IMG/VR virus record: IMGVR_UViG_2627853771_000003
Strand: one strand, 5' to 3'
Length of the DNA stretch: 48,551 bases
From: a virus
Taxonomy: Duplodnaviria; Heunggongvirae; Uroviricota; Caudoviricetes
This document shows positions 5,291 to 16,689 of the stretch, piece after piece; position 1 is the first letter of the stretch; each line of letters opens with the position of its first letter. The notes beneath the pieces were generated by a model. That model had not been told where the DNA came from, did not search any database, and worked only from the letters and a program-made list of their open reading frames with translations. The position numbers and the translations under genes were made by a program.

Positions 5291-5348
5291 AAAAAGGGCG
5301 GCAGAGCAGTCACGGAGTAAAACTGATACCGCCAAACGTCACCAGAAA
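5291..5348 (-). ncRNA. dicF: DicF-like small RNA (ftsZ-targeting sRNA of the dicB operon)
   Basis: Minus-strand sequence TTTCTGGTGACGTTTGGCGGTATCAGTTTTACTCCGTGACTGCTCTGCCGCCCTTTTT, with a GGCGG...CCGCC stem followed by a U-run; sits between the ydfC-like and dicB genes with no protein-coding capacity. Confidence 0.6.
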
Positions 5349-10932: not shown

Positions 10933-11143
10933 TTTTATATTGGCGAGGTGACGGGAGTTAAGTAGAATTGCTGCGGGTGCTTGAGGCTATCTGCCTCAGG
11001 CATGAACACCAAAGGCAGATAGAGAAAAGCCCCAGTTAACATTACGCGTCCTGCAAGACGTTTAACATTAATCTGAGGCTCAATCTATGAACGGCAAATC
11101 TAGGTTAGCCTCTTGCGTGCCGAAAGGCAAGGAGAAGCAGGCT

Positions 11144-11299
11144 ATGAAGCAGCAAAAGGCGATGTTAATCGCCCTGATCGTCATCTGTTTAACCGTCATA
11201 GTGACGGCACTGGTAACGAGGAAAGACCTCTGCGAGGTACGAATCCGAACCGGCCAGACGGAGGTCGCTGTCTTCACAGCTTACGAACCTGAGGAGTAA
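11144..11299 (+). CDS. hokD: Hok/Gef-family type I toxin (HokD/RelF-like)
   Basis: 51-aa product MKQQKAMLIALIVICLTVIVTALVTRKDLCEVRIRTGQTEVAVFTAYEPEE; an in-frame upstream ATG at 11087 gives a mok-like extension; terminator follows. Confidence 0.85.
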   Translation: MKQQKAMLIALIVICLTVIVTALVTRKDLCEVRIRTGQTEVAVFTAYEPEE

Positions 11300-11745: not shown

Positions 11746-12795
11746 GTGCGGATATTACTTCGACCTGTTCTGGTACCGGAACTCGGGCTGGTGATCGTTA
11801 AGCCGGGCCGTGAATCCATGCCGGTATTCCACAATACCCGGGTACTGGTGGAGCCGGAACCGAAAAGCATGCGTAATCTGCCGTCCGGGGTCGTTCCTGC
11901 CGTTCGCCAGCCGCTGGTGGAAGACAAAACATTGCTGCCGTTTTTCAGTAACGCACGGGTAATTCGTGCTGCTGGTGGTGCTGGTGCATTGTCTGACTGG
12001 CTGTTGCGCCATATTAAATCCTGCCAGTGGCCACACGGCGATTATCATCACAGCGAAACCGTTATTCACCGATATGGTACCGGCGCAATGGTGTTGTGCT
12101 GGCACTGCGACAACCAGCTGCGTGACCAGACATCCGAATCACTCGAGCAACTTGCTCATCAAAACCTGTCAGCATGGATGATTGACGTCATCGGTCACGC
12201 AATAAGCGGTACGCAGGAGCGTGAATTATCTCTGGCTGAATTATCCTGGTGGGCGGTCCGCAATCAGCTGGCGGACGCGCTACCGGAAGCGGTATTACGT
12301 CGCTCGCTGGGATTACCAGCGGAAAAAATCTGCTCGGTGTACCGCGAAAGCGACATCGTACCGGGAGAGCAGACCGCCACCAGCATATTGAAACAGCGCA
12401 CAAAAAATCTTGCACCGTTGCCTCACGCCCACCAGCAACAAAACCCATCACAGGAAAAGACGGTGGTAAGCATCACCGTTGATCCAGAGTCTCCGGAATC
12501 TTTCATGAAGCTGCCTAAACGTCACCGGTGGGTTAAGGAGAAATACACACGCTGGGTTAAGACACAGCCGTGTGCTTGCTGCGGTATGCCAGCCGACGAT
12601 CCGCATCATCTGATTGGTCACGGGCAGGGCGGAATGGGAACCAAAGCACATGATCTCTTTGTTTTGCCTTTGTGCAGAAAGCATCACGACGAGTTGCATA
12701 CGGATACCGTGGCATTTGAAGAGAAGTATGGCTCCCAACTGGAGCTGATTTTTCGATTTATCGATCGCGCGCTGGCAATTGGTGTGCTGGCCTAA
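11746..12795 (+). CDS. ydfU: YdfU-like DUF968 protein with C-terminal Cys/His (HNH-like) cluster
   Basis: 349 aa, GTG start after GGAGG; C-terminus [43 protein letters not shown]. Confidence 0.7.
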
Positions 12796-12812
12796 TTTTG
12801 TGGAGTAAGTTG

Positions 12813-13190
12813 ATGCGTGATATTCAGATGGTTCTTGAGCGTTGGGGGGCATGGGCGGCTAATAATCATGAAGATGTGACCTGGTCGTCCATTGCCGCCG
12901 GTTTTAAGGGATTAATTCCTTCAAAAGTAAGATCTCGTCCGCAATGCTGTGACGATGACGCGATGATCATTTGTGAATGTATGGCTCGCCTGAAAAAAAA
13001 CAACAGCGATTTACATGATTTATTGGTGGACTATTATGTCGGCGGCATGACTTTTATGGCGCTTGCACGTAAGCATGGGCGATCTGATTGTTGGGTTGGC
13101 AGGATGCTCCAGAAAGCTGAGGGCGTAGTGGAGGGCATGCTGATGGTGTTGGATCTCCGATTGGAGATGGATGCTGATTGTTCGAAATAA
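12813..13190 (+). CDS. late-gene antiterminator, Q-like (Phage_antitermQ type)
   Basis: [26 protein letters not shown]...; SD GGAGTAAG; position upstream of the late terminator and lysis genes. Confidence 0.65.
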
Positions 13191-13290
13191 TTAAAGGAAA
13201 AGTTGCTGTCTGATTTTCATTAGTCTAACATTTTAAATGTTGGAATCGCAACGTAGTTATTATCATATAACAGCTTGTTTCCTGATTTAG

Positions 13291-13317
13291 CCAGCCTCCC
13301 CAAAGGCTGGTTTTTTT
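13291..13317 (+). terminator. rho-independent terminator downstream of Q (tR'-like)
   Basis: CCAGCC-TCCCCAAA-GGCTGG hairpin followed by TTTTTTT. Confidence 0.6.
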
Positions 13318-13345
13318 CTAATAAGTATCATTTCGGGTGGGGATT

Positions 13346-13870
13346 TTATTGTTTAACCCATAATAGTTCATTGACATTGAATCCCAACTTTTGAGCGGTA
13401 CGCACATAGTCTGCTTTTACATTATCTGGAATAGTTTGGGTCCTTGCCAGAATCCATAGGTATTCTCTGTTCGGACCACTGACAAGAGCATACTTATACT
13501 CATCATCCAGTTTGATTACATTATAGCCACCATAGAAGGGGCCAAAAAACGAAACTTTCAACGCTGCAGTTTTAGTATCTCCAGTAAAGTATGCTTTACC
13601 TTCGCTCTCGCTCCATTTGTTTTTCGTTGGATCGTATCCACGGTTAAGTACGCGAATCCCTCCGTCGTTCCGTTTTTCATAAGTAGCGCTGACCTGTTCC
13701 AGACCACGTTCGAACCAGTTCTCGAGGCGAGCTATTTCATACCATTTTCCGAGGTAGCGGTTGGCGTCAAAATTTGTAATCGGCTGCACACCTTTAGGTG
13801 GTGTCGGGGCCTTACATGCTATAAGAGTGAAAGAGAGTGCAATGCCAGTCAACACAGGCCATAACTTCAT
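13346..13870 (-). CDS. Blc-like bacterial lipocalin, outer-membrane lipoprotein (moron)
   Basis: Signal peptide with lipobox LIAC; lipocalin motifs YLGKWYEIARLENWFERG and SFFGPFYGGYNVI; opposite strand to the phage late genes. Confidence 0.85.
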   Translation of the reverse strand: MKLWPVLTGIALSFTLIACKAPTPPKGVQPITNFDANRYLGKWYEIARLENWFERGLEQVSATYEKRNDGGIRVLNRGYDPTKNKWSESEGKAYFTGDTKTAALKVSFFGPFYGGYNVIKLDDEYKYALVSGPNREYLWILARTQTIPDNVKADYVRTAQKLGFNVNELLWVKQ

Positions 13871-14062
13871 AATAAATCCTGTACTTTTGATAGTTGAGAG
13901 TAAGTATGAAAGATAGATGAGTACGACCGATCACTTAAAGAACTTTCCTACTATATTAGGAATAGTCAATAACAGAAAAATTGTCAGTGATGAAGCCAGA
14001 AAGGCAATTTAGTCCGTGCACTACAAAGTTTATGTGTTAATGAATTAGTCAAGGGGGAGGAA

Positions 14063-14896
14063 ATGATAAAAAAACCTGTGATTGGGATCAGCGGTTGTTT
14101 GGGCGGTTCTGCTGTTCGTTTTGATGGTGGTCACAAAAGAGATGACTTTTTAATGGACAAATTAGTGGAATGGGTAACATTCAGACCAGTATGTCCGGAA
14201 ATGGCTATAGGGCTGCCAGTTCCGCGTCCTGCTCTACGACTTGTGCGCTCGAAGCAAGGAAATATACGGATGTGTTTCAGCCACGACCAGAATGAGGATG
14301 TGACAGAGAGAATGACAGAGTTTAGTCGTTCTTATATGGACAAATTAAAGGATGTATCGGGGTTTGTGGTTTGTGCTAAATCTCCCAGCTGTGGCATGGA
14401 GCGCGTGCGTGTCTATGATGAAAATGGTAATCGAGGTCGTAAAGATGGAGTGGGACTATTTACGAGCACTTTGATGGAAAAGTTTTCCTGGCTACCGGTT
14501 GAAGAGGATGGGCGATTACATGATCCAGTGCTTCGTGAGAATTTTATTGAAAGAGTTTTTGCTTTGCATGAGCTCAATCACCTTTACAAGGAGAAATTAT
14601 CAAGAAGAGAGTTATTAGCTTTTCATAGTCGTTATAAGCTTCAGTTGTTGGCGCATAGCCAGGCAGGCTATAAAGATATGGGACCATTTGTGGCTGCAAT
14701 ACACGAGTGGGCGGACCTTGAATCATACTTTGAGGTGTATCGTGATAATCTGATGGCGATTCTCAGAAAACCAGCATCACGTAAAAATCACACGAATGTG
14801 CTGATGCATATACAGGGGTATTTTAGTAATTACTTAAGTACACGCCAGCGTAAAGAGTTGAGCGAGGTTATACTTAACTTGATCCTACCCACGTAA
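14063..14896 (+). pseudogene. DUF523 (TudS-like, three-Cys cluster) + DUF1722 fusion protein gene, 3' end interrupted by IS3
   Basis: N-terminus MIKKPVIGISGCLGG with Cys12/Cys44/Cys105. The frame enters IS3 at 14880 and stops after 5 foreign codons. Removing IS3 and one TSD copy restores a 47-codon continuation ending at 16283. Confidence 0.7.
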
Positions 14897-14909
14897 TATG
14901 GACACAGGC

Positions 14910-15776
14910 CTAAGCGAGGTTCTTGTTTTCAAATTGTTCCGGACTGAGGCCGCCACACCAACTGTGCCGCCGCCACCGATTGTAATCACATTCGATATAA
15001 TTAAACACCGTTGCCCGCATTATTTCCCGGCTGATAAAGTGTTCTCCATGGATACATTCCACTTTCAGCGAATGAAAGAAGCTTTCCACGCAGGCATTAT
15101 CGTAGCAGCAACCTTTTGCGCTCATACTTCCACGCAGATTATGCCGCTTCAGTTGCGCCTGATAATCTGCTGAACAGTACTGGCCTCCACGGTCCGTGTG
15201 AACGATAACGTTCCGGGGCCTCTTACGCCGCCACAGCGCCATCTGCAGGGCATCGCAGGCCAGTTGCGCCGTCATGCGTGGCGACATTGACCAGCCAATA
15301 ACGGCACGTGACCACAGGTCAATGACCACTGCCAGATACAGCCAGCCTTCATCTGTACGTAAGTACGTGATGTCTCCTGCCCACTTCTGGTTCGGGCCAC
15401 TGGCGTAAAAATCCTGCTCCAACAGATTTTCTGACACAGGCAGGCCGTGTGCGCGGTAGCTGACCGGGCTGAACTTCCGGGAGGCCTTTGCCCTCAGCCC
15501 CTGACGGCGCAGGCTTGCCGCCACGGTTTTTACGTTAAAGGGGTAACCCTGAGCACGCAGTTCATCCGTCAGGCGTGGGGCACCGTAACGCTGTTTTGAC
15601 CGGGTAAAAGCCGCGAGGACAACGCTGTCGCAGTGTTGGCGGAACTGCTGACGCGTGCTTATCCTTGTCCGCCGCTGACACCACGTATACCAGCCGCTGC
15701 GGGCCACCCGGAGCACGCGGCACATTGCTTTGATGCTGAACTCAGCCTGATGTTTTTCAATAAAGACATACTTCAT
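14910..15776 (-). CDS. insF: IS3 transposase OrfB (InsF)
   Basis: 288-aa DDE integrase-core ORF inside IS3. Confidence 0.9.
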
Positions 15777-16081
15777 TTCAGGCGCTTCGCGAAGTATGTC
15801 GCGGCCTTTTGGAGGATAGCCAGCTCTTCATCCCGTTCTGCCAGCTGGCGTTTGAGACGTGCAATCTCGGTAGACATCTCCAGTTCACGTTCAGAAGACG
15901 TCTGCTGATTTTGCTGTTTACTGCGCCAGTTGTAGAGTTGTGATTCATACAGGCTGAGTTCACGGGCTGCGGCAGTAACACCGATGCGTTCAGCAAGCTT
16001 CAGGGCTTCACTGCGAAATTCAGGCGAATGCTGTTTACGGGGTTTTTTACTGGTTGATACTGTTTTTGTCATGTGAGTCAC
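15773..16081 (-). CDS. insE: IS3 OrfA (InsE), HTH/leucine-zipper protein
   Basis: 102-aa ORF overlapping orfB by 4 nt. Confidence 0.85.
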
Positions 16082-16137
16082 CTCTGACTGAGAGTTTACT
16101 CACTTAGCCGCGTGTCCACTATTGCTGGGTAAGATCA

Positions 16138-16283
16138 ACTATCGCTTTGGCACATTGCCTCTTCTTGCGCCGTTGACTCTGCTGAAGCATTATCTGGGTG
16201 AGTATCCTAATGATTACTTGCTTACACAGAATTACTTCGATCCCTATCCGGAAGAACTGGCTCTAAGACTGATGGTGAATTAA
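16138..16283 (+). pseudogene. 3' fragment of the DUF523/DUF1722 gene displaced by IS3
   Basis: In-frame continuation ...YRFGTLPLLAPLTLLKHYLGEYPNDYLLTQNYFDPYPEELALRLMVN* once IS3 is removed. Confidence 0.6.
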
Positions 16284-16689
16284 CTGTATGCGATATCATC
16301 TGAAAGTGATGAGTTCCTGTATGCAGGATATTTACAATCGTAAAAACTACGCTATGATGCTCATAGTGTCAGTTTTTATAAAAATCCTGTTCACGCTAAA
16401 GAAAACATTGAGATGCAATTTAATGTTGGTAAACATACCAGCCCCAAAAGATTTTATTCAATCTGTTTTTATATGAAGATATTTCAAGTGAATATAAAGA
16501 GCATATAATATTATTATTGCACGCAGCTATTATAATATAACAGATTAGTTTAATGATTTGTTTTTTGTGAGTTAAACACATGGTTTTATAGTTGTGATGC
16601 AATGAGATTTTCCTTATTGTTGAACTGGCGAATATTGATTTTCCACCTATACTTACCTGGTGTAACCCCAATGATATCAGGTGGATAAT

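Follow-up and report, generated by a model that had tools for sequence, protein, structure and literature searches.

RudS desulfidases and the interrupted gene

DUF523 corresponds to TudS, a [4Fe-4S] desulfidase that acts on thiouracil and thio-UMP. Proteins in which TudS is fused to DUF1722 were named RudS in 2024 and strip sulfur from 4-thiouridine (s4U) in tRNA (PMC11417400). Their overexpression in E. coli lowers tRNA s4U by 4.7- to 26-fold and shortens the UVA-induced growth delay, tRNA s4U being unaffected by either stand-alone TudS or stand-alone DUF1722 (YbgA) (PMC11417400). In DUF1722, the helices are described as forming two compact groups, four in each, that bind the anticodon arm, and RudS_vir, the RudS of Escherichia phage 1H12, lowers tRNA s4U in vivo and holds its cluster through cysteines 12, 44 and 110 (PMC11417400). 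E. coli K-12 YbgA (b0707) and the stand-alone TudS of PDB 6Z92 are single-domain proteins, each equivalent to one of the RudS domains. The RefSeq name 'YbgA family protein' conceals the TudS-DUF1722 fusion.

Within the window, as the whole 48,551-nucleotide stretch of DNA analysed here is termed, the earlier note had recognised a DUF523/DUF1722 gene cut short by an insertion sequence. The presence of an uninterrupted, identical allele in other genomes supports that description, and the family concerned is the one since named RudS (PMC11417400). Once the insertion is removed, the window protein is 91.8% identical to RudS_vir (gp66, H3V29_gp66; 319 aa with TudS and DUF1722), from which it differs by 26 substitutions. 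The N-terminal TudS/DUF523 domain, the three cysteines of the [4Fe-4S] cluster at 12/44/110 as in RudS_vir, and the catalytic Glu and Ser are all found, with C12, C44, C110, E46, S107 and S109 occupying the same positions as in RudS_vir and RudS_ST, while residues 6-114 align with the structure of stand-alone TudS (6Z92; E = 8e-4). As encoded at present, on the contrary, the window copy lacks the last 47 residues. As judged from its sequence, the interrupted gene is a RudS-type TudS-DUF1722 tRNA 4-thiouridine desulfidase gene, hereafter rudS, and its function is no longer unknown; the s4U-lowering activity itself has been shown for RudS_vir, and the uninterrupted window gene would share it by homology.

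The surroundings of the gene also resemble those in phage 1H12, both loci sharing the order Q-lipocalin-rudS-regulator-holin. The 1H12 cassette comprises Q, a lipocalin gene on the opposite strand, rudS, a regulator-sized gene and the holin gene. In the window, where rudS fills the slot between Q and the lysis genes, the cassette is made up of the antiterminator Q gene (12798..13190, plus strand; Pfam PF06530), a Blc-like lipocalin cargo gene in the same order as in 1H12 (13346..13870, minus strand; PF08212), rudS interrupted by IS3, and an AraC-type helix-turn-helix regulator gene (16681..17403, plus strand; PF12833/PF00165), beyond which lysis genes follow according to the annotation of syntenic loci. 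The rudS cassette forms an AT-rich island (30-45% GC) in a lambdoid prophage that was identified as Qin-type from three Rfam matches: the DicF sRNA (5296-5347, minus strand), a sok antitoxin RNA adjoining hokD (10975-11149, plus strand) and, ahead of cspI, a thermoregulator leader of cspA type (19920-20317, plus strand). A promoter and terminator scan of 12700-17900 returned counts no higher than those in shuffled sequences.

The IS3 element and the uninterrupted gene

The inserted element is a single complete IS3, an insertion sequence common in E. coli, on the minus strand, the only copy in the window, and the ends and the length given for it earlier (14880..16137, 1258 bp) proved exact. Its IRR end lies at 14880 and its IRL end at 16137, with imperfect terminal inverted repeats reading TGATCCTACCC... 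from 14880 (IRR) and TGATCTTACCC... on the reverse complement from 16137 (IRL), 29 of the first 45 positions matching. On the top strand the element thus begins TGATCCTACCC... and ends ...GGGTAAGATCA, in agreement with the TG...CA inverted repeats and the length of about 1258 bp of IS3. Two overlapping minus-strand open reading frames are present, both open: orfA (15773..16072; 99 aa, Pfam HTH_Tnp_1) and orfB (14910..15776; 288 aa, with the rve DDE integrase core, Pfam rve/rve_2). orfB lies in the -1 frame relative to orfA at an A-AAG programmed frameshift site (15806..15810, minus strand), which yields a 387-aa OrfAB transposase whose length equals that of the 1163-nt 'programmed frameshift' coding sequence annotated for IS3 in RefSeq. 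Identity to the IS3 copies of REL606, ET745 and other genomes reaches 99.76-99.92% over 1258 bp, the matched reference copies carrying the RefSeq label 'IS3-like element IS3 family transposase'.

The element is flanked by ACT on the left (14877..14879) and on the right (16138..16140), the 3-bp target-site duplication expected of the IS3 family, and no other direct repeat was found at its borders among the lengths checked, 1 to 9 bp. Taken alone, a 3-bp repeat would occur by chance once in 64. Chance is nonetheless excluded, since an 800-bp query over the rebuilt junction finds a single uninterrupted match, at 800/800 nt, in each of about 45 complete genomes of E. coli that were listed.

Removal of IS3 together with one ACT joins 14063..14879 to 16141..16283 in a 960-nt frame with a single stop, at its end. 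The in-frame union with a 47-codon tail ending at 16283 that had been proposed is thus recovered; the rebuilt product, previously given as 318 aa, is in fact 319 aa, 47 sense codons plus the stop having been lost. The rebuilt gene is identical over 960/960 nt to the intact 960-nt coding sequence annotated in E. coli ET745, MB20, E3 and 300081 (WP_000592549.1, 'YbgA family protein' or 'DUF523 and DUF1722 domain-containing protein'). Like the window gene, this allele lies in a Qin-type prophage context and, lacking the IS that interrupts the window copy, it represents the empty-site state of the locus. Considering that the rebuilt gene shows no second lesion, the insertion must be recent.

As it stands, the open reading frame (14063..14896, plus strand) comprises rudS codons 1-272 followed by five IS-encoded codons, with the stop inside the IS3 end. 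Its product is a protein of 277 aa, 272 native residues plus L-I-L-P-T, as the earlier note had it. The orphaned 3' end of the gene (16141..16283, plus strand) begins within codon 273 and runs to codon 319 and the stop. The sole in-frame start for these 47 codons is a TTG within the IS end, with no credible start otherwise, and they are probably not translated. TudS/DUF523 (PF04463) is complete in both forms of the frame (residues 7-149, profile positions 1-141/141, E = 6e-40). DUF1722 (PF08349), on the contrary, extends over profile positions 1-117/117 in the rebuilt form and over 1-78/117 only in the present one, so the suspicion that this domain is incomplete was well founded, and the complete C-terminal DUF1722 of a RudS is missing from the present frame. 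The ancestral gene is a member of RudS and the present allele a truncated pseudogene of it.

Altogether, it is very probable that IS3 transposed into codon 273 of rudS with duplication of ACT, leaving an allele that is most likely null or a strongly impaired desulfidase. On this reading a functional IS3 copy moved into the prophage-borne gene by the copy-out/paste-in DDE mechanism of IS3, with the OrfAB transposase produced through the -1 frameshift, and the 3-bp target ACT was duplicated upon insertion.

IS3 elsewhere in the Q-to-lysis segment

IS3 lies in or near the equivalent of 13300-17500 (4.2 kb) in about 127 of some 1100 genomes carrying rudS. Mapping across this 3-7-kb prophage segment in 18 genomes, at the equivalents of 12881-19560, placed IS3 at no fewer than 16 separate sites, almost all of which show 3-bp duplications; they fall in Q, the lipocalin gene (three), rudS (five), just 3' of the rudS stop and in an intergenic spacer, and further ones in the AraC-type and holin genes and in rzpQ. 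The first 14 elements mapped were all oriented the same way, but a strict orientation bias was rejected when a reverse-complement control query gave 70 genomes with the opposite orientation versus 57 with that of the window; the apparent bias came from the search, which joins same-strand pieces only.

Copies of rudS broken by IS3 were likewise found in RefSeq, where PGAP labels them 'incomplete', for instance in REL606 (ECB_RS23630/ECB_RS08055), CFSAN064036, 58-3, a15 and H9Ecoli. Gene, IS and 3-bp duplications are as in the window. On the contrary, the duplicated triplets lie at the equivalents of 14207-09, 14866-68, 14699-701 and 14876-78 (inverted), versus 14877-79 in the window, and since the insertion points differ these copies all represent independent events. 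E. coli B REL606 (NC_012967.1 1614655-1616875) carries the same rudS, broken by IS3 at about codon 49. In E. coli 58-3 (locus L009, 3500-5989), an IS3 is nested in another IS3-family element in the spacer between rudS and the AraC-type gene, with an additional IS3 within rudS itself, and in KMi012 and 19M19 an IS1 lies in or adjoining rudS.

These many hits may reflect either a region that is hot for IS3 or decay tolerated in AT-rich prophage DNA that is dispensable. That the window insertion was something other than a random neutral hit, arising from an IS3 hot spot (a regional one, with codons 268-273 of rudS as a micro-hot spot) or from favoured disabling of cargo or late genes, is possible though doubtful. 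The roughly 127 carriers observed compare with about 3 expected, a rough estimate that spreads some 3-4 IS3 copies per genome evenly over 5 Mb, but many of these genomes are probably clonal descendants. The number of distinct sites and the AT-richness of the segment also speak for a hot spot; IS elements, however, build up in any dispensable prophage DNA. Three independent events fall within 14 bp, namely AGG at 14866-68 (CFSAN064036), AAC at 14876-78 and inverted (a15, H9Ecoli), and ACT at 14877-79 (the window), a cluster that came from searching specifically around the window junction and to which an estimated p of about 0.03-0.1 is attached. No target motif was seen at the site, a by-eye comparison of the target with the IS3 ends revealed no sequence resembling the inverted repeats, and the near-balanced orientations equally argue against this reading; nothing specific on an IS3 hot spot in prophages was found in the literature. 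The broader proposal, that the AT-rich cargo cassette of Qin-type prophages is a preferred IS3 target (with the micro-hot spot at codons 268-273) or that its disruption is selected, appears unlikely. Were it true, IS3 would constitute a recurrent and predictable switch removing a phage-supplied tRNA s4U 'eraser' from about one-fifth of E. coli lineages, sometimes along with Q or lysis genes. The preferred reading is that the window insertion would represent selectively neutral decay of prophage cargo.

Consequence of the truncation and distribution of the allele

Translation of the interrupted gene continues for five codons into the IS end before stopping, so that the product retains the catalytic TudS domain in full and DUF1722 over its first two thirds. 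The 47 residues lost would correspond approximately to the final two or three helices in the second of the four-helix groups that make up DUF1722. The earlier note would have been refuted by full-length homologues ending near residue 272; instead, among the best 120 listed when 5.8 billion proteins were searched, nearly all are 319 aa long and cover the full query, tail included. Two homologues exceed this length (403 aa and 500 aa); one, from an E. coli record, has an added GGDEF domain (PF00990) and the other, from a metagenomic contig, an added PF12915 domain, and both may have arisen by fusion or as artefacts of read-through. When 30 Enterobacterales homologues are aligned, 25 of the 47 columns of the lost tail (273-319) are invariant, versus 132 of the 272 columns retained (1-272), the tail being about as conserved as the remainder of the protein (53% vs 49%). 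As the lost tail is conserved, tRNA desulfidase activity is likely to be lost or strongly impaired.

An AlphaFold2 model built from 29 close homologues reached low confidence values (mean pLDDT 62.5, below 50 in the tail); it places the break where helix 260-274 ends, with helices 284-293 and 297-301 lost. Because of this low confidence, the structural role attributed to the tail is drawn from its conservation together with a homologue's published model.

It is improbable, by comparison, that the 277-aa protein still works, either as a weaker tRNA desulfidase or, with a changed function, as a TudS-like enzyme on free thiouracil or thio-UMP. The catalytic domain is kept in it with the three cluster cysteines (C12, C44, C110) and with E46, R55, R59, S107 and S109, and the presumed tRNA-contact residues of DUF1722 also lie upstream of the break. 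Indeed, all the residues mutated in the RudS paper, that is, the catalytic Glu, Ser and Arg and the DUF1722 contact groups G5 and G6, precede it, these two groups probably corresponding to about 198-200 and S239/R240 of the window protein. Against a working protein, one third of the DUF1722 profile is missing, the missing segment is the one found 53% invariant across Enterobacterales, and helical bundles with a partial deletion usually misfold. As for small substrates, stand-alone TudS proteins do act on them (PMC10611767, PMC11417400), but growth on thiouracils is supported by TudS and not by full-length RudS (PMC11417400), which shows that, within RudS, the TudS domain does not act simply as an enzyme of free bases. 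The preferred reading of the truncated allele remains a lost or strongly impaired desulfidase.

A junction query found the exact IS3 junction of the window in none of 5,426 complete E. coli genomes, the nearest matches being 1 bp off and inverted (a15, H9Ecoli) or 11 bp off (CFSAN064036). The exact 277-aa product occurs in one other public assembly, on a short-read contig of 2008 bp. This contig has the same sequence as window 12901-14908, spans the left junction and ends 29 bp inside the IS. The suggestion that the IS3 is an assembly artefact (a mis-joined repeat), or that the 47 codons beyond it were never part of the gene, can be set aside as extremely improbable, for although IS copies often cause misassembly and the junction is missing from the complete genomes, the 3-bp duplication is perfect, both IS3 ends are complete, the independent short-read contig covers the left junction by 29 bp, and, both in the identical E. 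coli alleles and among the best 120 homologues listed, nearly all of which have it, the tail belongs to a protein of 319 aa. The insertion is a recent pseudogenisation of a known kind and, being absent from the 5,426 complete genomes and found in one short-read assembly, is specific to the strain.

The gene itself is present in 1135 of the 5426 complete E. coli genomes (21%), less than 80% of it lying in one place in 72 of these 1135 carriers. E. coli has been said to lack RudS homologues (PMC11417400), which holds for K-12; yet rudS, in prophages, is common in the species and often IS-broken. Since more than a thousand complete genomes carry it and REL606 carries a copy broken by IS3, strain background matters for s4U and UVA experiments. 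The locus is correctly annotated as a rudS pseudogene interrupted by IS3, and not as a 277-aa 'YbgA family protein'. The event is of a well-understood and already known kind, insertional pseudogenisation by IS3 of a member of a gene family with demonstrated function; it is a real but ordinary gene inactivation, of low general interest beyond the annotation and strain-background points.

A second insertion sequence, of the IS66 family and 2532 bp long, lies at 23216-25747 (context 22736-27375). It carries three minus-strand open reading frames (HTH TnpA, TnpB_IS66 and DDE_Tnp_IS66), has ends reading GTAAGCG... and is bordered by an 8-bp duplication, ACATTATG. This element splits the terminase large-subunit gene gpA, its removal restoring a 699-aa open reading frame, and because gpA is split in this way the prophage is probably unable to package DNA.
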